From positions 5,766,001 through 5,830,000 of the forward strand of contig CM102283.1 of assembly GCA_046563655.1 (NCBI GenBank): a stretch of DNA of 64,000 nt, in the 5' to 3' direction. A program made the position numbers and the translations under genes. Under the pieces are notes generated by a model. It was not told where the DNA came from and did not search any database. It worked only from the letters and a program-made list of their open reading frames with translations. Positions 1,729-60,786 of this stretch are shown here, piece after piece (the first letter of the stretch is position 1; each line of letters starts with the position of its first letter). This stretch comes from Yuukianura sp. NJ FZ-2021. Its lineage: Eukaryota.

Positions 1729-3296
1729 ATGGCAGATTCATCCTCTGGAGTGAACGGAACGAACATACCGAAACAGTCGGAAACTGACGGCAAAACCAAC
1801 GAGGTTGATCGAGAAAAACAAGCGTAAGTGAAATTCAGGCTTTGGATATTGTGCTGATGGTTGATTGATGATGATGATTGCTATAAAAAACTGTTTTTAT
1901 TCTAATTCCAGGTTAGTGGTTTCGAGTAACCAGTCGGCTGATACAATGCAAGAGGCGGACACGACGCTAGGAGTGAATCCTAGAGAACCGATAGCAAACA
2001 CGGAAGTGACTAGAAGCGAATCTACGATCAAAGTGAAACGCTACACGCATGTGTTTGGAACCGAAGGGAAAGCCAACGACGTCATCTACGCTGCTCCGCT
2101 GCAAAAGGAACACGTTCCTGGTGACGTCGAGTCTTCAACGCCAGATCGTGACCAGGATCGTGTCATGGTATTCTTTGGAGGTGATATGCAAGTAAGCTCT
2201 CTCGAATTTTGAAATTCCCGGGGAAGTATTTTTGAACTTCTGGTTTTTCAATTTGAATTTTTTTTTCAACCAGGATTTCCCAGAAGCAATGCAAATGTCT
2301 GCTACACAGCGCGAGCACTATCAATGGAATTTAGAGAACACAGCAGTTGTACTGCAAAAACAGTTTCCAGATCGTCATATTCTTGTCATCCGTCCAACCT
2401 TCATGCAGGATAAGACGTTTAGCTGCTTTGACAATTTTCTATCAACGCTTGGATTTGGGAATCCTGAGTATACGCCTTTCCATGGGGCTCTCCTGCACCT
2501 TCGACGATTGTTGACCGAACTTTCTCGACGGATCAACCAAGACCGTGAAGTAGCTTTAGCAGGAGAAGACAAATCGATCAGTTCTACATCGGGAGTTGCG
2601 AGTCATAACGGGAGGAATTCACATAAGAAGTTTAAACATGTAAATTTTGCACGGGGGAACATCAGTTTAGTGGGATTTAGCAAAGGCTGTGTCGTTCTCA
2701 ATCAATTCTTGTACGAATTCCATTACCTCAAGGTAAGTTTTGGATATTCATAACAATGTTACTTTGCAACATTGAATTGACCTTATTTAGTTGACCTTTG
2801 TGCTGAATGTTTGCAGACATTAACGCCGGATGATGATACCTTTGAAGATTTCCTAAGCTGCTTATGTGATATGTACTGGTTGGATGGCGGACACAGTGGC
2901 GGGAAAAACACATGGATCACTGCCCGTTCACTGCTGGAAACACTGAGTCGTCTTAAAATCAACGTTCACGTACATGTTACACCGTATCAAGTTTCCGATG
3001 ACCTTCGACCTCACATTGGACGTGAAGAAAAGCTGTTTTCCGAATCACTCAAAAACTCTGGTGCTCCAATCCAGCGATACGTCCATTTCGAAAGTGTCCC
3101 TCCCTCTCTGGCAAATCATTTTCAAGTGATAGCAGAATTTGGATCTCCCACTGTGCCCAATACTTTTGAAAATGATGACTGGGATGGAGAGGACTTGGAC
3201 AATGACAAGAACGGAAGTGGGCAGTATCATGTAGACGATCTCATGGCTCCAACTGATTACAATGACAATGAAGAGGAAGAAGATGAAGGAAACTAA
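1729..3296 (+). CDS. C2orf69: C2orf69/UPF0565-like protein (4 exons)
   Basis: Motifs VFFGGDMQDF, YQWNLENTA..L, FSCFDNF, LVGFSKGCVVLNQ, MYWLDGGHSGG, VHVHVTPYQV..RPHIGREE and SLANHFQVI. Canonical splice sites. Confidence 0.9.
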
Positions 3297-4732
3297 CAGG
3301 AGCTGGATCAGATCTGGTCACTATTCTATCTCAGAGTCAAGACTCAAATTTAATTTCCCAGTGCCGATTAATAATTTAAAGGTGAAGTTAATTAGCTAAA
3401 GTTGGTCTAAACTTAAAGTTACGCATAGTTAATCTAATTGAATTGAACACAATGAACTTAAGTTTTCCCTTAGGAGAATTATTTACTAAGTTCCTAAAAA
3501 TTAATTTAAAATTTTGAAAATTTTCTTCCGAATTCTCAAATTGATTTCAAAGAGTTTATATTTATCTTCCTTTTGTTACAATTTTTAGGGCTCGTAGAAT
3601 CTTTATTATTACGATTCCGTAGTTTTCAATTATACAGATCTTGTGTCATGCTTAATAATTAAATTAATTGTTAATTAGATTAATTGTTAATTAAATTAAT
3701 TATTAATCAGGATGATATTTCCCTGTGGATTATGCCTTGAACTAATAATTGATGGATGAGTGTATAAATGTGTTTTGTTGATGAGAGATCGGGAGTATCG
3801 TGAGTAGGCATTAATTTGTGTGACGTATTTTTAGGAATCCTATTCTAGTGTAAATTTAATCTCCATTTGGATTCATAAATTGAACAAAAGGAGAGAGGAA
3901 TTGCTTTTATGGAGGTTTCACCTGTTGCAGCAGGCGTAGCTAACTACAGGAACGGCGAATTAATCATCGCCTTGCGTTCCTGTCATCATCATCGTTTCAA
4001 AAATCCATTCACAAGTTTAACAATAAGCTCACATTTAGTTTTTTTGGTTTTAGTTGATCGACATGGACACAAACGCACGTACACTAGCACTAAAAAGCTT
4101 AAGGTCGAGAATTCGTATTACGTTACGTTAGGTATAATGTTAGGTACGTGTGTTCTACCTGCTGCGCAAATACTCAAATATTGAAGATTTTGGTTTGCAA
4201 ATCCAATGGAGGAACTATTTCAGGTTGACATGTTAAGTAGTTTTCGTTAGCCAGTGGATTTGGCTTTGCAATTTCCAAGTGGCGCAAGTTGGACTCCAAA
4301 TGTGCATTTTACGTAACTTAAATGGCGAAATTTGTGCATTTTACGTACTTAGTTTACGAAATTTGGAAGTCAGAAAAGTTTTAACGGCGTCATACATAGC
4401 CGGATATGTGACCAGGAAAAATATTTTTGTCGGACGGTACTAACATTTCAGTATTTCGGTGCTGCTATTATACACAATGACACTGACAATACTATATAAA
4501 CCACAATCAGTGTTAAGGAAAGCCAACTTCCTTCTCCAGTGCGGTAAGCTTTTTGCTAAAAATTTCTCGGTTTGAAGGAAATTCCGTCCTAGCATCCCTG
4601 AAACATTTTTTCTTACAAGTTCCTCCGTAAAGTTTGTGGTAATTTTGCAAACTTTTAAAAAGGATTCTGTTTTGTTCCAATTTTTCATGGTATTGTGAAT
4701 TGTTTGTGTTGGTGAGGTGACCTAGAATCAAA

Positions 4733-7700
4733 ATGAGTGAATCCAATGTGCGTCGAACGTCGTTGCAAAAGCGGTTTAGTGTTGGACCGGAGAATGCCGA
4801 TGGACTTGTGATTCTGCGCAGAAAGGGGTCAGTTGACCCCTGCGCTGACCTGACCTCATCCGGCGGTACAAATAGGCCTGGTGACCGTGTGTCCAAAGTT
4901 GACTCAGTTTCGTGTGATGTCATGTCTGGTGAACCTATTAGAATGATGGGCTACATGGAGAAACGTTCAAAACTTGTGAGTCACAAATGCATAAAAGTTA
5001 TTCATGAGGTCACCAATTCCTTCAGTAACTATGCTACTTTGGTTAAGAAAACTTTGCAAAGCAATGGTCGACATGTTTATTATGAAATGACTAATTTTTT
5101 TAGGTGAATTTGGAGGTGTTTTCTCACGAAACGTTACAGCTTTAAAGAATTTTGAAAAATGGATTCCCTTCCGTTTTGCCCTTGAATTTTCGTTGAAACT
5201 TTCTACTTTTTAAATTTAACTTTTCCTGGGTATGCACAAAAAACAGCAAATTCAGCAGAATTTTTCATTTTTGTTTATGCTTTAAGAAGAATATTCTTTG
5301 GATATAAGTTCTGCAGACGGAAAACAGAGGAAGTCATAACTAAATTTCCAAAAGCCAGAGGCGTTCTTCTAGTTTACATTTTAAAAAGTGAACAAAAGCA
5401 AAACCAGATTTTTTTAATACAGAAGCCACATGTTGTGCTAAGAAATTAAAATTTTGAAAATTAAAGCCTAATTGTAGATCTTGATCAAATTAGAACAAAA
5501 ACTGAAAGCCTAGTGGGGGTGAGAGATCAAACTGAATAAAAAAAAGTTTAAAACTCACAGACTATTGTTTTTTGGTTCTTTTTTTCGTGTCTCCAGTTTT
5601 TTTTAATAACGGCTTCATGGCCGATTCGAGTTTATTATTGGAGTTCATTATATAACTTTTGTGTTTTTTCTTCTATAGAATGCGGTCCAGATTTCAGATT
5701 TGTTATGCATTTTAATTTTAGGAAAACCTTGAACGCGTCTGTCTAAAATTGTAAAATATGTTTCATGTGTGGTTTTGATTTTTGTCTCTTTTTGTTTCAG
5801 TTGGGCTGGAAAAAGTTTTGGTTTGTTCTGGACGGACATTTGTTGACATACTTCAAATCCAAAGCAGACTACGAAACGCTGTCTCCATTTGCTGGCTCAA
5901 TTACACTCGGAAATGTATCTACTGTCCGCCCCATCCAGATCAAAAACTGCAAAGGATTCCCCATGCAAATAGTCTCACGAAATCAAGTCTACTATTTGGT
6001 AAGTCAATTTGATAAGCAGTTTGGTTAGGTCAAACGCTAGGTCGAAGGTTAAAGTTAGTCAAATCGTACACTCAACCTTGTTTTGTACGTTTTGCAGAGA
6101 TGTCCGGAAAAAACTGTTCTGGAAGAATGGGTTCTCGCTTTGCAAGAAACAATTTCAATTCCGCCGTCAATTTCTAGTCCAGTTTGGGCTGATCCCGGAG
6201 CCCAATTTTACCGATACTCGTTTGCCGCAGTTTCTGATTGGGTACGTTTCAAATTTTCTGAAATAATTACGTGAAAAAACTTCAAATTTTCATTTTAGTT
6301 TTTGGTTTTAGTCAGTTGCAGATTCTCAAGGCGACATTTCCGGATCTCTAAGCAATTTACCGAAGAATTTCTACCTGAAACGTGACAAAACCGAACAGTA
6401 TCCCCCATTGAAACAAAAGTGTCAAAGTTTTACAAATCTTCCAACCGAAACTAGTTTTCCACATCCAGATTCCCCGAGTGCTTCCAACAGAAGTATTTGT
6501 TCAGCCATGTCCAGTGGGCGCCAAGATCCAAAAATGCGTTACTCCGCGTCGCTGGTTCAACTGGAATCTTCTGCCCAAGCATCCGAACTCAAACGGGAAC
6601 TTGCATCAAAGCTCTCCATTGGCCACATTTCCCCAAGCTCAATTCGTGACAAACAGCAACTGGAGAAAATCAAACTCAAAATTTCTGATGAAGGAAGTCT
6701 CAAAAACAAATTCGGGTCGAATGTCTCCAGCGACTCGTCAGTTAAAGAAGACCAACAACCTCCTTCAAGAATCAGTGAATTTCTGAGCGCCAATTTCAAA
6801 AGTACTGGAGCAGAAACGCCGCGAGCCACAAGTGCTTTGGCTGCAATTGCTGAAGGATTTGAACCAAACCTGAAACGTCGTCCTCACACTCTGCAGCTCC
6901 ACTCCACTAATAACGAAAGTGAAGAATTCAGAAATTTGAAAAAGAAAAAAGGAATTGGAAATTTACTGCAACGAATTTTTAAAAAAGAGTTGGATCAATC
7001 GTCAACAACGAAGAAACGACAGGATCGTGGCATGGTCATTTCCAGTCCAGTGGATCTTCGTGCGCAGTCGCAAATTATACTGCCGGACAAACTAACTCCC
7101 TCCCCTCCAAAATCGAATTCGCCGCCAATTTTTGAACCACATTTTCCATCTAAAGGAGTTCCAATTCCCAAATCCAGTCAATTCATCAGCGAACTCAGGA
7201 AAGTTCAGCGTCGTCGCAGTTCATCCGAAGATGAACCAATGACACCCGAGACTCCGCCCACTTCACCAGTAGTGCCTCCAACACCTCCACCGAAGACTGT
7301 TGACGACAACTTGAGTTACAACGAGAAGTTGGCCAAGTTCAATCGACTTTCGGCACAACTCGGTGCGATCCAGTTGAGTCCAACTTCTGGAGGTGGCATT
7401 AGTCGCTCTACATCTTGCCGTGTCAAAAGTTATGACGAAGATGAACCACCGCCACTTCTGCCACCCAAGAAAAGTACTTTAGAACGAAAAGAGAAACTGC
7501 CTTCGGCGTATGATACACCTAAAAACAACCAACCTGTCACAGGAGGAACACCGCTGGATGACGGTTCAATGATCTTCATCCCACAGTTAGCTACTGGATC
7601 GGTTCCCCGGGAACGAAAAATTTCTCTGAGCAAGCTTCTGTGCAAAAAGAATTCTGCTCCGGAGATCACCGTTGGTCCAGACATTTTTAGCCCAAAGGAA

Positions 7701-14606: not shown

Positions 14607-15331
14607 CGTTGGTAGTATTTGCTTTGTCGTAACCCCAACAGTTAATCGGATTAATTTCTACTGGATCCCTTAGTTTTAAATCATCGGACTTTAAAAACAA
14701 ACTTGACAAAATCCAAAAAAGAAAAAACTTTTACTAGTATTGTGGTTTTCGTCACCTGTCGTGTCGATTCGTATTTATGAAACGCACTGACTATTCCACA
14801 GATACAGCGGATACTTAGTGACGAATTTCTCTGCCATAAGGATTAATGACCGCCATTGTGGCCGCACAGTGCAGGATTTCCGGCCATCGTTTGTGGCTAC
14901 AATGGTGGCAACTTCTGTAGCCATTTTAACCTAATCTCGTCTAATCTAAAGTGGCAACATGAGTTGCCGCAGCATAGTTATCCATTGTAGACGCAATGTG
15001 GCTACACCGTGCGTGAAAAATGATTATCGTTAATCCTTACCCCAACCGTGATTTCCTAGCCAATTTTTGCAGTGGTGCACCCTAGTGAGGGGGCAAGTAT
15101 TCTATTCAGAACACTCTGCGAGTTTTCAATTTTTGCCATATGGATTGCTATAGTCTTTCAAGTTCCGAAGTTTGAAGTCTCATCAAATTCCAATCGCGAA
15201 AGCAAACAAAAGCGGAGCAAAGCAAACACGGTCTTTGTCGCTTCGAAGGTGAAGAGTTAACCGGTAAAAGTGATTCTTACTACGATTAATTGTTTGTTTG
15301 AATCTATCGATATTCGGATATCACCTACACC
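14607..15331. promoter_or_regulatory. Probable bidirectional promoter region of SF3B6 and eIF3c
   Basis: Divergent ATGs ~725 bp apart. Repeated GTGGCAAC motifs (~14906, ~14951) and a DRE-like TATCGATA at 15305-15312. Confidence 0.55.
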
Positions 15332-18300
15332 ATGAGCCATTCTCGTTTTTATGCGAGGGGATCTGATTCTGAATCGGAATCTTCATCAGATGAGGAACCC
15401 CAGATCCAGAAGGCGCCGGCTATAACCACAGCATACGATGATGTAAGAAGCTCTGTCTAGCCTTAAGACAATCTAAATGTATTCTAATTATTTGGGTTTG
15501 GCAGTTGAGTGATGAAGAAGAAGAAAGTGGGAAGCGAATTGTCCGGTCTGCTAAGGAGAAGCGATATGAAGAAATCATGGGAATTGTCAAAAAGATACGG
15601 AACTACCGGAAGATCAACGATGTTCCCAATTTACTTGACTGTAAGCTTTCGTTTCTTTAGTGCAGCAGGGTACTTCACACCATCATACCTAAATAATTTT
15701 TTGGACGGTCTATAGGTTTTGAAGATCTGGTAAAAGCTCATCAGAAAGCGCTTCCTGTGATTGCCAAGGAAGAGAAGGGGGTTACGCCAACTTTTATCTT
15801 GCGTACTCTCGCCCAGCTTCAAGTTTACGTAGATCAACAATGGGAGAACAAGAAAAACAATGCGAAGATGCCAAAGGACAAGGCCAAGAGTCTGGGTACT
15901 CTGCGCCAGAAGCTTCGAAAATATAACAAAGACTACGAGGAAGCTCTTGCTAAATTCCGTGAGAATCCGGAACTACTGGAGGAAGATGACTTTGAAGAAG
16001 AGAAAGAGATCGAACCAGACGTATCCAGCGAGAGTGAAGATGAACCTGAAGTGAAATCTAAGACAAAGAAGCCGGCGAAAGTGAAGGTAAGAAGGCTGAG
16101 ATTACTAGACGTTTTCAATAGGAACATAATTTAATAACTTGCCCAGGACGATGGGGATGACGACTCTGACGATTCTTATTGGGCGTCCAGTGGATCCGAA
16201 TCCTCCAGTTCGGAAGATGACGAGACTCAGTATGCCTCTATTCGTGAAAAGTTTTTGAAGAAACCCGGAAAAACTGAAACTAAAAAGGATAAGAAGGAAG
16301 AGAAGAAACCAAGAAAGGTTGTTCAGAAGGCTCCGCGCAAAGATGAAGAGGAAGAAGATGGGCCAGAATGGGAGGTTGTCAACCGCGGAGCGATTGCTGA
16401 ACGTCCTGTGATGTTTCAAAAAGACCAAGAGATCACAACACCGGTTGTCATCAAGAAACTTAATGAAATCACTGCTGTTCGTGGAAAGAAGGTATGGAAA
16501 TACTCTTACAAACAGGAACAGATCATAGACACTTTCCATATCCATCTTTCGTCTTGAATTCTGACTTTGACTTTTGACCTGCAGGGTACTGATCGGCGTG
16601 AGCAGATTGACCTCTTGGTGGAGCTGGAATCCATTGCAACTCAACATAAACTTGGACCAGCACTTCAGCTGAAGATTTCATTTTGTATTGTGGCCGCCCT
16701 GTTTGATTACAGTATGAAAATTCACGAAGTACAGAAGGTCCAGTACTGGTTGCGCCTACTTAACAAAACTACTGAGATGTTAAACTTGGCTAAAGAGCAC
16801 AAGGATTCCATCAAGGTTAGTTCAATTTATTTTAATTTTATAAATGTTTCGGATGTGAAATTTTCACCGTTCCTTTATTTTTCCAGATTGAAGAAAACAT
16901 CCCTGAAGATGGAGAAGAGTTGGAGAAAGCTCCGTTCAAAGTCAGAGGATGCATTTTGACTGTTTTTGAACGCTTGGACGAGGAGTTCCTCAAAGTTCTG
17001 AAGGAATTGGACTCACATTCGTTTGAATACATGGAACGAGTTCAAGATGAACGAAAAATATGCGACATGTTGGAAAGCCTCATTGCCTATCTGGAATCAA
17101 CAGCATCCGTAAACGACCGTGGACTTATGTGCAGGGCTTACTTCAAGAAGATTGAGCACATTTACTACAAGTTTGACGCTCGCGTGCTGAAGAAGAAGCG
17201 CGTAAGTTCAAAGAAATCTAACATGTAAATTTTTTTCATGTGTGCGACAGTTAGTGGTTGGTTAGTGAACTAGAAATTGAAACTGTGCTCAAGGAAATAT
17301 GGTTTCTCTTTCAGAGAGTTAGCATAAGAATTGTGAGCGTAAAGAACGACAAGGTCATTCAGATCCCAGAGTTTCGTTTGAAATACATTTCTCTGCTACT
17401 TCAGAGTGACCACAACGATAACCGATTTATAAAATCTTCAAGATTTGATCAGATCTGTATTTTTTGATTTCGTAGGGTGAATATAAAGGAGAAACAAGCG
17501 TGGACACAATGCATCGCTTGGCAGCATACATCTACGCTAAAGACACCACTGACCGCTTGCGTACCCGTGCCATTCTCTGTCACATCTACCATCATGCGCT
17601 CCACGATAATTGGTTTGAGGCACGAGACTTGCTGCTCATGTCGCACCTTCAGGAAGTAATCCATCACTCAGATCCTCAAACTCAGGTGAGGCAAACGTTA
17701 GGAATACAGTGGGAGACGGAGGGAACTGTGATATTCAATTGGAAATTTTAATGTTTTGGTTTCAGATCATGTACAATCGCGCCATGGTTCAACTGGGAAT
17801 TTGTGCCTTCCGCCATGAGTCTATTCAAGATTCCCATAACTGTCTTGCAGATTTACTCATGAGCGCCAGAGTCAAAGAACTGCTGGCTCAAGGGCTCATG
17901 CCGCAACATCGTCATGATCGAACAGCCGAGCAAGAGAAAGTTGAACGCAGTCGTCAAGTCCCTTTTCATATGCAGTTGAACCTGGATGTTATTGAGTGTG
18001 TCTACTTGGTGTCAGCGATGCTTCTGGAAGTACCCTATATTGCTGAACATGAATTTGATGCCAAGAGACGCCCAATTTCTAAAACATTCTATCATCAATT
18101 GCGTACAATGGAGAAGCAGAGCTTGACTGGTCCTCCGGAATCTATGAGAGAGCATGTTGTAGCAGCCGCACGAGCGATGAAGAAAGGAGATTGGAGGAAA
18201 TGTTTCAACTCACTTGTCAACGAGAAAATGGAAAAGAAAGTCTGGAACTACTTTGGAATTTATGAGCATACTGTAGGCGAGAAACTGTAAGTTCCATTTC

Positions 18301-19104
18301 CTTGTGTTTTTAAATCATGAAAGAAAGCCACTGTTTTGGATTTTGAGAATTGAGCGATGACAAGTTTTATTTTCATTTTTAGAATTGGAGTGAAGCAAAT
18401 GGTTCAACGGAAGATCAAGGAGGAGTGTCTTCGCACTTATTTATTTACCTACTCCCATGTTTACGACTCCATCAGCCTCCCGCGTCTGGGTTCCATGTAT
18501 GAGCTGGACGATGCTCAGGTACACTCTATCGTCGCCAAAATGATCATCAACCAAGAGCTAATGGTAAATTCAAAATGCTATTCGAAACATATCTGTTTTA
18601 CTTTGTGTTTTTATGAGGATTAGAATGAATTGCTTTTGGTATTTTAGGCTTCCATGGACGAACCCACCAAGTCCATTGTTCTCCATCGTACGGAACCAAC
18701 ACGTCTCCAGTCCATGCTGCTCCAACTCTCGGACAAGGTGAGTTTTAAACTTTGTATTTTGATCATAATGGAGTGCAGATTCTAACATAAATAACTGAAC
18801 ATTGTGCTTATCGATGTAATTCTTTTTGATATAGGTGAACATCCTCCGTGAAACCAGTGACCGTAGCTTAGAGACCAAGATCCAGAGTGGCCCGGGAGGA
18901 ATGATGGGACAGGGAGGAAAAGGTGGCCAACGTTTCAACCGCCCTGACTGGAAGAACCGTCAATCTCGCGGAGGAGGTCAAGGCTACAACCGTGGAGAGC
19001 AGCGGTCAGGAGGTTACGAAGGCCGAGGAGGATACAATCAGGATCAACGCAAAGGAGGAACTTACAACCAGGAAATGAGTAGAGGTCAACGCACACGACA
19101 GTAA
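15332..19104 (+). CDS. EIF3C: Eukaryotic translation initiation factor 3 subunit C (multi-exon)
   Basis: [87 protein letters not shown] and [16 protein letters not shown] domain. Confidence 0.97.
17285..17417 (+). ncRNA. Candidate intronic H/ACA box snoRNA in eIF3c intron 17202-17476
   Basis: Hairpin 1 (GTGCTCA...TGAGCGT), then H box AAAGAA at 17341-17346, then hairpin 2 (GGTCATTC...GAGTGACC with upper stem CAGAG/CTCTG), then ACA at 17412-17414. Length ~130 nt, in the host's longest intron. Confidence 0.7.
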
Positions 19105-20756
19105 TTGCAGACTCCTGGTACTTGTGTATTCAGATTCCTCTATTAAATATCACTTTGCAAAGGAACAGAATTACAGTCTATTTAAACATCTTTGTTTCTC
19201 AGTTTAGAATAAAAAGTAACTTTTTTAACTTATGTTAATGGGTTCTTTGCAAAAATAAACAAGTCACCGATTTTGTTTGGGTAATTGTTCTAATACTTCT
19301 TTCTCGAATACTTCCAATATAAATAAATACTGCCGAAACTCAAGGGAGGCTTGAGTCAAGACATGGCCTGTTCTGTTCGACATATCGTTGGCTATCGTCT
19401 TTGATGTATTGACAACTTGCGGCTCTTTCATAAGAACGAATACCGGGAAGCATTCATTTTTTAACAGTTTCTGGTTTGTTTCATTTTTAAGGGGGGAGAA
19501 ATGTTACGACCACGAGAGTTTCGTTTTTTATGTTTCACCAGTTCCGATGAAATTGTGAAAGTAATTGAACAATTTCACGGAACATTTTAACATTTTCCAT
19601 TAAGGTTTTGACACTTTTCCCAAAAAGCGATGACTATTCGTTCCAAGGACCCATGAAATGAGTTAAAAATAGTTTTGACCACACGAAACATAAACAGTGG
19701 GCCTTATTGTTTTCTTGACGAGTTGAAACAGAAACTGTTTTTTTTTTGGATAGATAGGTCTCTGTAGTGCTTAAGTTTGTATTAGTCATCATCAGTTCCA
19801 GTGACGTGACCCTTCTGGATTCTTGGAACTAATAATAATAAATAGTAGCGTGCTGTTCTTCTCTGGGACACAAAGCTTTTGTTCTGTGTCTAAAATGAGA
19901 ACTTTAGTCGTTGGTGTTAACATCATCGGGCAGGGAGAGAGAGGGTTAAAAATTCGGTGTATTCATGAAACTTATCGAAGATGAGGGGTAAACCATGTCA
20001 AGCCTAGGCAATGTGGGATCAGTCTCTTTTGTGAAAGCTTCATGTTGTTACTGTTACTTTTGTGAGGAGGGTGAAGTGTGAAAAAGTGATCTTCTTATCA
20101 TAGAACTTAAGAACCGTTCTTAAGATTTACACTATTGGTCTGATTCTGAATTTAAAAGTTAAAACTTGCTATGGTTATGGCACTTGGACTTGACAAATAA
20201 AAGGGCTCTCGTCAGAACGAAAGTCAGAACGAAACGAGAGCAACACAGGCTAACATTAAGAAAAGAAGTGCTCGAGGGGAAGGTCACTCACATCATCTGA
20301 TTACTTTAAATTATACTTACTCCGTCTCATCCCAATTACCACAGTGACATCGTTTTTACGTTAATTTTCTGCTAATTCGTTTTAATTCACTGAACGTACG
20401 GTTAACTAACTCGTGCTGCTTTGATGGTTGGCTGACCCACTCAGAAGTTTTGAGTCAGAATGTGACACAGGCGGCTAATTGTTGTTGGTGGTAATCCAAT
20501 TGGTGGTGGTTAATTAATTTGAGTTTTGGGTTGCTGCGTTTTAAGAAGATGTGCTGGAATTGGGATCCGAATTAGAATTAAAACTGTACGTCAATTGATT
20601 TTGTGCAACGTCAACGAATTGGGAGTTCGTGTTCGACGGAGAAGCTAAATCAGGAAGCAGTCTCAATTTCTTTTACGCCCTAGACGTACCTAATTATCTC
20701 TACGAGGTTAAGCATTAACAAAGATGATTAAATTAACGTCATCAAGATCACAAAGG

Positions 20757-25050: not shown

Positions 25051-28000
25051 ATGGGTTTCGTTGACAAAGCGTTGACCAACGGTTTTCGAAAACTTGGTCA
25101 CAATGTGGCCCTACGTCCGAAAAATTACATCCTGGGTTCGATCATTGTTTCACTAACGTTGGCCACTGGTCTCCTACAGTTGAACTATGGAAACGACGTC
25201 CAGCATCTCTATGCCAACAGCAATGGACACAGTGTCTACGAAAAGGCCCAAATTTTAAAGTATTTCCCGGCAAATTACTCGGGAGCATTTTCTCCCTCTA
25301 GGATAGCTAATCTTGGACGCTTTGTAAGGTAAGGGAAACAATTAACCGATTTTAGTCAATTAAGAAGTATTTTCTCTTCTATTTTTGTTGGTTTCTGTTT
25401 GTGCGTAGTTGAGTGAAATTTAAGTTTAATATATGTATGCCATTCCATGCAATACGGCCAAAAAGAAATTGGCCCAAGAGTAAAAGGGTCAAAAAGCAAA
25501 ACGGTCGAAAAGTGAACCAAACCTAACCTAAGCTATGTATAACGGTTGACATTTTCAAATTTTGATCTTTTAATTTTTTGATCATATTATGTTGACCATT
25601 TCACCTGCTATGTTGTTAGGCTGTACTGCTTGAACGCGTAACGTGGAATATAGCGTTGTTTTTGTTTTCTGGAACAGAAAAGTTTGTTTCAGTGGATCAA
25701 TATTACAATCATTCAATAATCCGTTTAGAAAATTTTGATGTGAAAAATAGGTAGAAAAATGATAAAATGTTTGGGAATATTGTATGAAACTTGTTTTAAA
25801 AAATGTTTCACAAGGAAACACCACGTACCGTATATCGCGTCGTCTTTAAAAAAAATATCGGAAGATTTCCAGACGAGTTCTTGTTGAATGTCGCTGTCAG
25901 TTGCAAAAAAAATGCACGGGCCCGACGCTATCTACTTAGAGAATCAAGTTTTCGATAATAAATTCCTGAACTTTTTATTATACTTTGCATAATTCGAATT
26001 TTACGTACAACGTCATTAAACACTTGCCGAAAGGCGTGCCACATTGGCTGGTTAGCAAGTACGAGCAACAATTTAATATTCAATAAAAATTTAACGAAAC
26101 ATTAATTTACAATCATTGTTTAAAAATATTTATAAACATTTTTAAATTTTAAATATTCATACTGCAACGGCAAATAATTTAGTGAATCGCGTATCACAAT
26201 TTTTTCCCTTCATACATCCCAAATTCAAGAAATCATGATTTTCTAGGTTGGTACTTTTTTCGCTGGCACACAATTACAATTTTTATAACTAATAATTTCC
26301 ATTACTATAATTTCTATAATTACAATTTCTAAAATTACAATCTTTATAGCTGGAATCAAATACAATTCAAATTGACTCTTTCTATGTAGGATAATCATCT
26401 TAGCCAAAGACAAAGGAACGATTCTTCGGAGTAAAATTTGGAACGAAATCGTCGAGGTCGATGACCTTTTACACAAAATCAAAATTAACTACGGCGGATC
26501 TTCCTACAACTACAGTACTCTTTGTGCCACGCTCCAAGACAATTGCTACGAAAATGATTTTCTTGACTTAGCCCAAGTTATGGACCGCATTGAAAATGGC
26601 TCTCTGCGATTGGTCTATCCAATCATGGTCAATCCCGAAACTTACAATACGCATGTCCTGCCTTTCTTTTTCTCTGGACTCAATGTGTCACAAGACAATT
26701 TGACACTTTATAGCGCCGAAGCAGTTATTATGAACTATTTCCTCAAATTTGAAACTGAAGAGGATGATGAGCGGGGCAGACTGTGGGAGAGAGCATTGGT
26801 CGAAGCACTGTTGGAAGTCCGTGACAAGCGGAAGTACATTGATGTGTACCAAACCACGTACTACTCCACCGTGTCTGAACAGGAAGATAATGCTATCAAA
26901 GTAATTCCGTACTTCTCCATTTCCATTTTCTTTATGTGCTGTTTTACGGTACTGACTGCCGTGAGTCGCGACTGGGTCAAAGCCAAACCGTGGGTAGCTA
27001 TGTCCGGCATAGTGATGGCGACATTGGGTACCGTCGCTGCGTTTGGATTCTTGTGCTACATTGGAGTCACTTGTATAGGCATCAACTTGGCAGTTCCATT
27101 CATCATGCTGGGTATGACGCACTACTTCAAACTAGTTCGTAAAAAAAACACACAAACAAATTAAAATTTCAAAAAATACTAACAAGTTTTTGAACAATTG
27201 TAATTTTCAGGAATTGGAATTGACGACACTTTTGTGATGCTGTCAGCTTGGCGTCAGACGTGTTTGATGGATCCAGTACCGAAACGTTTGTCCGATACTT
27301 ACGCAGAAGCAGCAGTTTCCATTACAATTACAAGCTTGACTGATATGCTTTCGTTCTACGTTGGTCTTCTGACGCCAATTCCATGTGTCCAGATTTTCTG
27401 CGCATACGCAGGAACATCCGTCCTTTGTATTTACCTCCTCCAAGTCTTTTGTTTTGGAGCTGTACTGGGCATCAGCGGAGATCAGGAGGCTGGAAATCGT
27501 CATTCCGTTTTTTGGTGGATCCAAGCAGTGCCCAAGTCCACTGCAGGTTAAAGCCAAAAAACCAACATTTGAAAATATAAACAGCTCAAAACATTGTAAA
27601 CATGAAATTTTTTGAATGTTTTAGATGGAAAGTCAGCTTTGTTCAAAATGTTTTTCACTGGAGGAATCAACAAATCAGATCCAACGAACGAATTGGACAA
27701 TGGAGAAAACGCTGTGATGGTTTTCTTCAGAGATCACTTTGCTAAGTTCATTACAAAAGGCTGGGTCAAGGTCATGGTTTTGATCCTGTTCGTGGGGTAT
27801 TTGGGAGTATCAAGCTGGGGAATTTTGCATTTGACAGAGGGACTAAGGGAAGAGCGTCTGTACCATGATGATTCTTATGTCACCAAGTTTGCCTTAGAAG
27901 ATAACAAGTACTTCAAGCGACTACAGTACAGAGTTCAGGTGAGGTCACTAACCCCGGGGTTTTGAAATTTTGAAAATCCTTAATTCTGCATTTTTCCTCC

Positions 28001-59159: not shown

Positions 59160-60786
59160 AGTCTGCAAATGGAAAAGCTTGTGTCACCGAGAAAAGAATT
59201 GATTTAATTCGTAGAATTCGCCTAATCGGTGCCCATTACGTCCGATCGACTGCTGGACTACTCCACGAACCTTTTCTAGAAATTACACCTAAAATTGTCG
59301 AACCTTACCCCTTGAATTATTTCCTCTAAAGAAGTAGTAAATGATTAATAGCTAATTAACAATTCACACTGTTTTTTCGGTTTCTTGTCTCTTGTGGTCA
59401 TCTTTACCTCAAGCAGTTATGTTCATTCTGTTTCATTTTTTTTATTTCATGTAAGATTTAGTAGGAAGTGTACAGTGTAGCGGTGAGTTGTTTCTGTAAA
59501 AGAAAGTTGTGGCGTCGAGTCGTCTTGTGGGAGTACAATCATGATCGTTTCGTGTAAGCCACAACCCCATACACTGTACCTTTTAGCACTTTGAACTTGG
59601 GTAAACACACAACACGTTTCAGAAAAAGAATTGATGAAGTTTTTGTCATCTCAAATCCCCATAAATCCCCATGGGGGAATCGTCGAACAAGGGAAAGCGT
59701 AGTCTGAAGTACCGTGCGTTTTTTACGCATGTTTTTCGATAATGCTCGGGTAGTGGTGTGTCATCGCTTGAAGACTTCAAGCTGAAGTTGTAATTAAAAA
59801 AATGATAATCTTAATTAACTTCTTGTCCATAACTTGCGATTACTTTAATTAAACGTTTTCATTGGTTTTCAATGGCCTTTGACCGTATCGTTCCGGAGCA
59901 TTACTGGGGTGCGGCAGCATCCGGGGCCGGTTTTTCAAAAAATTGCGCGGAATTTAAGCAGAGTTCTCACGGTAAAACACACCTGTGCTGCTGTGGTTCG
60001 TAAATTACAATAAAAAGATTATCTTTCTCTTGTTTTGTTTTCGTATTAAAAAAGAAAATAGTAGGACATCAGAGACAAGATTACTACCGTGTGACTCGTT
60101 TGGCCACTTTTACATAAGTATTCAACAGTTGATGTCTTGTGCGGTGAGGACACTTCTTACTTCCTATCCCACTTTAGTGTGACTAATGAACTATCCGAAT
60201 CATTTCCTACTCTTGTGGTCGAAAAAACTTGACTCACAGGAAACTGGACTCCAGCAGCTGATCTAAACTGATACTCAACGTTAGGCTTAACTTACTTACT
60301 ATAAGGTGTCTTCTCAGCAAAGTTTGTAACTATCTAAAAATACAGTGTAATCTCATCACAAAGTGCCAGGTCAAATTCTAATTAGGTAAGATCACGATCA
60401 GAATGACGACGCAAAAATCTGTCAAGTAACACAATTCTGATCGTAGTGGGTACATGCGGGGTGCCTTTTATTTGAATAGCCTTACAAGCACGTGTAACGG
60501 CGTTAGGGTTCACCTAGGTCAAGTTTACCGTTTATGTTCAAGCCTCAAGTTTATTTGAATTCAGAGACTTTTTACAGTTATTTTGTAGAAGTTATCCTAA
60601 CTGAGGTCAAGCAGACGATTTTTACAATAAAGCTAATAAAATTCTTTTGACGTTTCAGATCTTCCAGTAAACTTCCTCCAGGCCGACATCGAATGCCATT
60701 CCTCGATCCAGAAAGTCAACGGTTGTGGTTATGGTCGTGCCTTTTAGTTCATGTTCAGTCCCTAACAACACTTGTAAATCAGTTGA

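Follow-up and report, generated by a model that had tools for sequence, protein, structure and literature searches.

The question raised by this locus is whether the one enlarged intron of an eIF3c gene encodes a guide RNA of the box H/ACA class and, if so, which uridines such an RNA would address. The gene lies in what is called here the window, i.e. the whole analysed stretch of 64,000 nucleotides from Yuukianura sp. NJ FZ-2021 (assembly GCA_046563655.1, contig CM102283.1, positions 5,766,001 to 5,830,000 of the forward strand), and positions without further label refer to it. The host gene is intact, with 926 codons and ten GT-AG introns; Pfam family PF05470 matches three of its exons and homologues of the protein carry the name eIF3 subunit C, in agreement with the identification of the host in an earlier note on this DNA. 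Intron 6 is the sole intron longer than 97 nt, the remaining nine measuring 60-97 nt, and the 3' end of the predicted RNA lies 58 nt before its end, which matches the earlier placement of the element in the only long intron, about 60 nt from the acceptor. The general remark that genes for translation factors host guide RNAs is in line with PMC2653536, where EIF3S10, EIF5 and PABPC4 are listed as snoRNA hosts. The literature search, which covered mainly papers that require no subscription, returned no report of a snoRNA in eIF3c or of the present RNA. The features to which we refer are as follows.

15332..19104, + strand: eIF3c host gene, 11 coding exons and ten GT-AG introns, giving an open frame of 926 aa
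17202..17475, + strand: intron 6, 274 nt, host of the snoRNA candidate
17285..17417, + strand: predicted box H/ACA snoRNA, ~133 nt, with ends placed from the lower stem and from ACA+3
17285..17340, + strand: 5' hairpin, lower stem 17285-17291/17334-17340, upper stem 17298-17301/17323-17326, apical part about 17305-17318
17292..17297, + strand: left strand of the 5' pocket, diverged from relatives, with no convincing target
17327..17333, + strand: right strand of the 5' pocket, beginning 14 nt ahead of the H box
17341..17346, + strand: H box AAAGAA (ANANNA), directly after the first stem, unchanged in the duplicate of the gene
17353..17411, + strand: 3' hairpin, lower stem 17353-17360/17404-17411, upper stem 17367-17371/17391-17395
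17361..17366, + strand: left guide strand of the 3' pocket, pairing with own 18S 638-643
17396..17403, + strand: right strand of the 3' pocket, beginning 16 nt before ACA; its guide part 17396-17399 pairs with own 18S 632-635
17412..17414, + strand: ACA box, abutting the lower stem; ACA is present in relatives L026 and L046 too

The succession of hairpin, H box, hairpin and ACA had already been described, and every motif named then was found in its place on the + strand. That description did not include the 5' pocket, which is defined here as 17292-17297/17327-17333 and is closed by the stem 17298-17301/17323-17326. In the minimum-energy fold of 17285-17417 both hairpins are formed and the pockets are open, and the tops of the pockets lie 14 nt from the H box (5') and 16 nt from ACA (3'), within the 14-16 nt range of the H/ACA class. 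The further features of the class, i.e. the hairpin-hinge-hairpin-tail order with one pocket per hairpin, ANANNA in the hinge and ACA after the 3' hairpin, are present as well. Folding stability is most pronounced for the 3' hairpin alone (z -3.17, none of 200 shuffles equally good), followed by the 5' hairpin alone (z -1.86, 9/200) and the whole element (z -1.12, 27/200). When the intron was shuffled with its dinucleotides preserved, 42 of 1500 sequences passed a filter for the hairpin-H-hairpin-ACA layout, and 11/1500 did so when a pocket score of at least 10 was demanded in addition (the bounds of the shuffled intron were one base off in this test). The same filter is passed at 11 distinct places in the window when both strands are counted, and the number of other H/ACA-like layouts is near the chance expectation. 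The other passes comprise 5005-5138, 14887-15006, 25682-25812 and 60031-60152 on the + strand and six places on the - strand. The layout by itself is weak evidence for a snoRNA, suggestive only, and since the filter can be passed by chance, it is conservation and the target that carry the case.

As to class membership, Rfam at the gathering threshold gave no match in the whole window, and scans with E-values up to 10 of the element region and of the introns of relatives gave chance-level matches only (E 0.2-8). Those to snoU83D (minus strand), SNORA67, snoR135, SNORA15, SNORA40 and SNORA58 were rejected on this ground, so that the Rfam search suggested earlier as a check ended with no family matching the element. 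H/ACA scaRNAs are marked by the CAB box, of consensus UGAG. The element is not a scaRNA, because the CAB box is absent from both apical loops and no snRNA is among the best sites of either pocket. Its assignment as a putative box H/ACA snoRNA of an unlisted family is supported.

For the analysis of conservation, metagenome contigs were scanned once for eIF3c, which yielded 80 loci with 341,605 bases. Eight of these loci (L022-L027, L046 and L047) cluster with the window in a long-branch clade with 85-97% protein identity, which in eIF3c is separate from insects and from a named crustacean; the nearest named eIF3c proteins are those of insects, at about 65-67% identity. The whole orthologous intron is present in two members of the clade, L026 and L046, whose eIF3c proteins are 85-86% identical to that of the window and in which the intron occupies the same position and is likewise enlarged. 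A covariance model built from the window element and its in-genome duplicate alone found its best match among the 80 loci (341,605 bases) in L026 at 2287-2416 (E 7e-4) and its second in L046 at 3288-3421 (E 4e-3), followed by a third with E 0.027. Both leading matches lie inside the orthologous eIF3c intron on the sense strand, and this conservation we regard as strong evidence for the predicted element. The sequence of L046 alone folds into two hairpins (z -2.75) and has ATATTG as its H box, one letter off ANANNA. In L026 the H box and ACA are good, but the fold of the 3' hairpin is poor, and no two-hairpin fold is obtained for the element as a whole. Covariation in relatives, which had been proposed as a check, was counted in an alignment that had been fitted to the structure, leans towards it and has three independent lineages only: both sides had changed in 9 of the 29 pairs, and 94% of cells were paired; in a structure-blind MAFFT alignment of the four sequences the hairpins were misplaced and no consensus pair was obtained.

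The other clade members can be dealt with briefly. L022 and L047 are without the relevant part of the intron. L022, which is 97% identical in eIF3c, has a match that starts within the exon following the host intron and stops before the end of the last exon, and it looks like a partial duplicate. Of the orthologous intron, L027 has only the final 146 bases, with a stem ending in ACA and a similar right strand, but it was not counted as a homologue, as the models give it no score and its best site, 18S U511, is unmarked in human. Its positions 1-70 may be the 3' end of an H/ACA hairpin cut by the contig end, with a pocket that fits 18S U511 better than U636; the two uridines have similar contexts, and few changes would suffice to switch from one to the other.

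A further comparison is provided by a second copy of eIF3c in the same genome, on contig C5 at about 93700-97900 (L144), 94% identical to the first. Its likeness to the window is limited to 15251-19357, which indicates a gene-sized duplicate with no long shared block around it. Over the 133 nt of the element the two copies differ by 5 substitutions with no gaps, whereas the flanking 141 nt of the intron show 12 of each, substitutions and gap events (Fisher p 3e-4); measured against the other nine introns, the constraint is borderline (p 0.055). None of the five changes falls in a pocket or box. Two preserve pairs, namely 17286 in the 5' hairpin (U-G in the window, C-G in the duplicate) and 17391 in the 3' hairpin (G-C and G-U, respectively), and three fall in the hinge or a loop, among them 17347 and 17349, close to the identical H box AAAGAA. 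As a separate observation, the introns 15443-15504 and 18287-18382 are identical between the copies, together with about 500 bases around 18287-18382, perhaps owing to gene conversion.

The target was the point that the earlier note had left unsolved. Both pockets were scanned against the organism's own 18S, 5.8S, 28S and 5S rRNAs and U1, U2, U4, U5, U6 and U12 snRNAs, 1808 uridines altogether. For the 3' pocket this resolved to 18S U636, which we take to be a conserved 18S pseudouridine site in helix 18. Positions 17396-17399 pair with 18S 632-635 and 17361-17366 with 638-643, giving 6+4 Watson-Crick pairs in a duplex that abuts the upper stem and leaves U636-U637 free. In a strict test, which demands at least 3 unbroken Watson-Crick pairs on each side and whose criterion was chosen after the match had been seen, U636 is the only site of the 3' pocket among the 1808 uridines (10 pairs), and 6 of 1000 shuffled pockets reach 10 strict pairs. 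When G-U pairs and one mismatch are allowed, 30 of 150 shuffled pockets score as well. The duplex energy is -10.2 kcal/mol at U636, compared with -8.9 at 18S U637 and -8.0 at 5.8S U15. The 3' pocket of L046, scored like all pockets of relatives against the rRNA of the window organism, finds the same 18S U636 with nine strict pairs (22/1000 shuffles); that of L026 has no strict site at U636.

In the supplement of PMC6984369 the first U of the U636 context is given as pseudouridine 681, with SNORA55 as the guide, in human, mouse, chicken and Xenopus, and table 1 of the same paper likewise has 18S-681 modified by SNORA55; PMC4914119 places the guide for 18S Psi681 in the 3' stem of this RNA. For yeast, snR161 is reported to guide 18S 632 (PMC5699541), which corresponds to human 681, as Am619/Am668 show an offset of 49 and as the yeast row of the PMC6984369 supplement indicates. 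Human Psi686 (SNORA44) was considered as the equivalent site and rejected, the context being that of Psi681. The 3' pocket most likely guides pseudouridylation of 18S U636, the equivalent of human Psi681 and yeast Psi632. The proposal of an intronic box H/ACA snoRNA gains support from conservation in the orthologous intron, from constraint in the duplicate relative to the flanks and from a 3'-pocket target at a known pseudouridylated position.

The 5' pocket behaves differently. In the relatives its best site is own 28S U2023 (scores 11 for L026 and 9 for L046), the context of which is that of human 28S Psi2495, guided by SNORA61 (PMC6984369 supplement). In the strict test the L026 pocket returns U2023 with 10 pairs (17/1000 shuffles) and the L046 pocket does not return it. 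The duplex energy at U2023 is -1.9 kcal/mol for the window, versus -8.4 and -7.6 for the relatives. The window pocket has no strict site among the 1808 uridines; with G-U pairs its best sites are 18S U834 (9.5) and 28S U2019 (9.0), and 24 of 150 shuffles are as good. The human equivalents of 18S U834 (885) and of 28S U2019 are not marked as pseudouridine in the PMC6984369 supplement. Altogether 18S U834, 28S U2019, 28S U2023, 18S U718, U12 and 5S were considered for this pocket and none was convincing. As the window pocket has no good target and those of the relatives fit U2023, the window copy has probably lost or shifted its 28S function. A second guide for U2023 was sought in the organism's own genome with two patterns, which gave 216 and 11 matches (98 and 8 in controls); 41 matched loci and one further stretch were checked for stems and none passed, the best-looking locus (L143, G000:C4:11170900-11171700) being a tandem repeat of about 280 bases.

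As far as three lineages allow, the simplest history would be an ancestor that guided the equivalents of both Psi2495 and Psi681, with both functions kept in L046, the first lost or shifted in the lineage of the window and the second in that of L026. A more specific version, tentative and on balance doubtful, is that of an unlisted, eIF3c-hosted family of the arthropod clade in which a single RNA would combine the guide for 18S Psi681 with that for 28S Psi2495, L046 retaining the two, and whose pockets turn over by lineage, L026 having lost the 18S pocket and the window having re-aimed its 5' pocket either four bases upstream (from U2023 to U2019) or at 18S U834. If this re-aiming were true, it would imply a pseudouridine at a position that is unmodified in vertebrates.

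Several other explanations have to be weighed. The RNA might be a real H/ACA snoRNA whose 3' pocket guides another uridine, such as 18S U637 or 5.8S U15, or an RNA outside the scan, for instance U11, U4atac, U6atac or an mRNA. Scans that tolerate G-U pairs give U637 a score of 9.5 and 5.8S U15 scores of 9.0-9.5, and in L046 the 5.8S site even edges ahead (9.5 versus 9.0); however, U636 is the only one of these sites whose Watson-Crick pairs run without a break to the upper stem on either side, and it also has the best duplex energy, whereas U637 requires the opening of one pair of the upper stem, and the pseudouridine of vertebrates and yeast is the equivalent of U636, not of U637. We consider a different target of the 3' pocket very improbable. 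A decaying or unexpressed remnant of a snoRNA, or a conserved intronic structure that acts in cis on eIF3c splicing, would agree with the want of a good target for the 5' pocket of the window and with the degenerate look of the 3' half of L026. Against this, boxes, stems and pockets are intact in both in-genome copies while the flanks diverge, and the conserved letters are those of the boxes and of the strands complementary to rRNA, which a cis element would not need; a remnant or cis structure appears very improbable.

Finally, hairpins and short motifs could have come together by chance, as the shuffles and the other places in the window that pass the layout filter, the modest z-score of the whole element and the lack of an Rfam match might suggest. 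Yet in both relatives with a complete orthologous intron the independent model matches lie within it, and each of two different pockets leads to a known pseudouridine site of its own. Chance arrangement is already largely refuted by the matches in the orthologous introns, and we judge it extremely improbable.

The reading that we prefer, and hold to be very probable, is that of an intron-encoded H/ACA snoRNA with the 3' pocket directed to 18S U636 and the 5' pocket most likely no longer directed to 28S U2023. By analogy with the established H/ACA pathway, the RNA would be transcribed within the eIF3c pre-mRNA. Splicing and debranching would free it from intron 6, trimming would bring it to about 17285-17417, and each hairpin would be bound by dyskerin/Cbf5, Nop10, Nhp2 and Gar1. 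In the computed pairing the 3' pocket would occupy 18S 632-635 and 638-643, so that U636 and U637 would be left free beneath the upper stem, at a distance of 16 nt from ACA, and dyskerin would convert U636 into pseudouridine, as human Psi681 and yeast Psi632 lead one to expect. The 5' hairpin keeps its stems and the H box, and its pocket, most likely off 28S U2023, would be inactive or weakly aimed elsewhere.

Among known systems, SNORA55 (ACA55) resembles the predicted RNA in being an intronic two-hairpin H/ACA RNA with a 3' hairpin that guides 18S Psi681 (PMC4914119 table 2; PMC6984369) and in having a 5' pocket that varies by lineage, directed to 18S-36 in amniotes and to the equivalent of 28S-4323 in Xenopus (PMC6984369). 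In contrast to this likeness, neither the window element nor its relatives match SNORA55 in Rfam at E up to 10, the 5' target is a different one, and the ACA55-type RNAs of chicken are found in PABPC4 introns, not in eIF3c (PMC2653536). Yeast snR161 guides the equivalent uridine, 18S Psi632 (PMC5699541), but it has a second target, 18S Psi766, and belongs to a family confined to Saccharomycotina according to PMC5824354; the window element has no Rfam match to it, and the Psi766 region is absent from the top 12 sites of either window pocket. In its mode of action the element would resemble both snR161 and the 3' hairpin of SNORA55, and Rfam places it in neither family. SNORA61 (ACA61) is similar to the relatives only, as it guides 28S Psi2495, which the 5' pockets of L026 and L046 fit; the window pocket misfits U2023, the other target of SNORA61 is 18S-918, and there is no Rfam match. 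The Drosophila RNAs snoRNA:Psi18S-640a-g are H/ACA RNAs of 124-137 nt (PMC13228274), and fly 18S 640 is probably, judging from the number alone, the same uridine as own 636. Unlike the present element, they form a cluster of seven copies near 20.42 Mb of chr2L, a chromosome arm other than that of fly eIF3c (chr2R; PMC13228274), and the supplements of that paper have no snoRNA row at six coordinate prefixes around fly eIF3c.

The predicted RNA adds an annotation missed by Rfam, that of a putative guide for an 18S pseudouridine conserved between yeast and human. That the two hairpins can change independently, with one pocket fixed and the other retargeted, is documented for vertebrate snoRNAs, SNORA55 included (PMC6984369), and target switches are described for fungal ones (PMC5824354); as such turnover of pockets is already on record, the present RNA would be one more example. 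We regard the snoRNA as real but ordinary, apart from the signs of loss or change of the second-pocket target.

Some observations concern the rDNA and other snoRNA-like elements. Three of the four 28S copies returned from the organism's own genome (L008, L009 and L010) are 3770 nt long and that on C4 (L007) is 3926 nt long. The copies on C1 (by alignment) and C5 (by length) are without 156 nt at 28S position 2564, in the conserved core, which the C4 copy has; the gap reflects either deleted rDNA units or an assembly artefact. Another eIF3c intron carries SNORD49-like box C/D candidates in L050 (1808-1878) and L048 (2818-2886), with Rfam E-values of 0.015 and 0.076, respectively, below the gathering score. 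The eIF3c intron that hosts the present element has, in animals more distantly related, a box C/D-like RNA (TGATGA ... CTGA), at 2260-2350 in L048, 905-1012 in L050 and 2185-2292 in L051. This RNA has a long internal hairpin and a stretch of 13 nt perfectly complementary to 5.8S rRNA, starting at 5.8S position 72; it presumably resembles a guide of the SNORD96 type. The host intron seems to carry different snoRNAs in different lineages.
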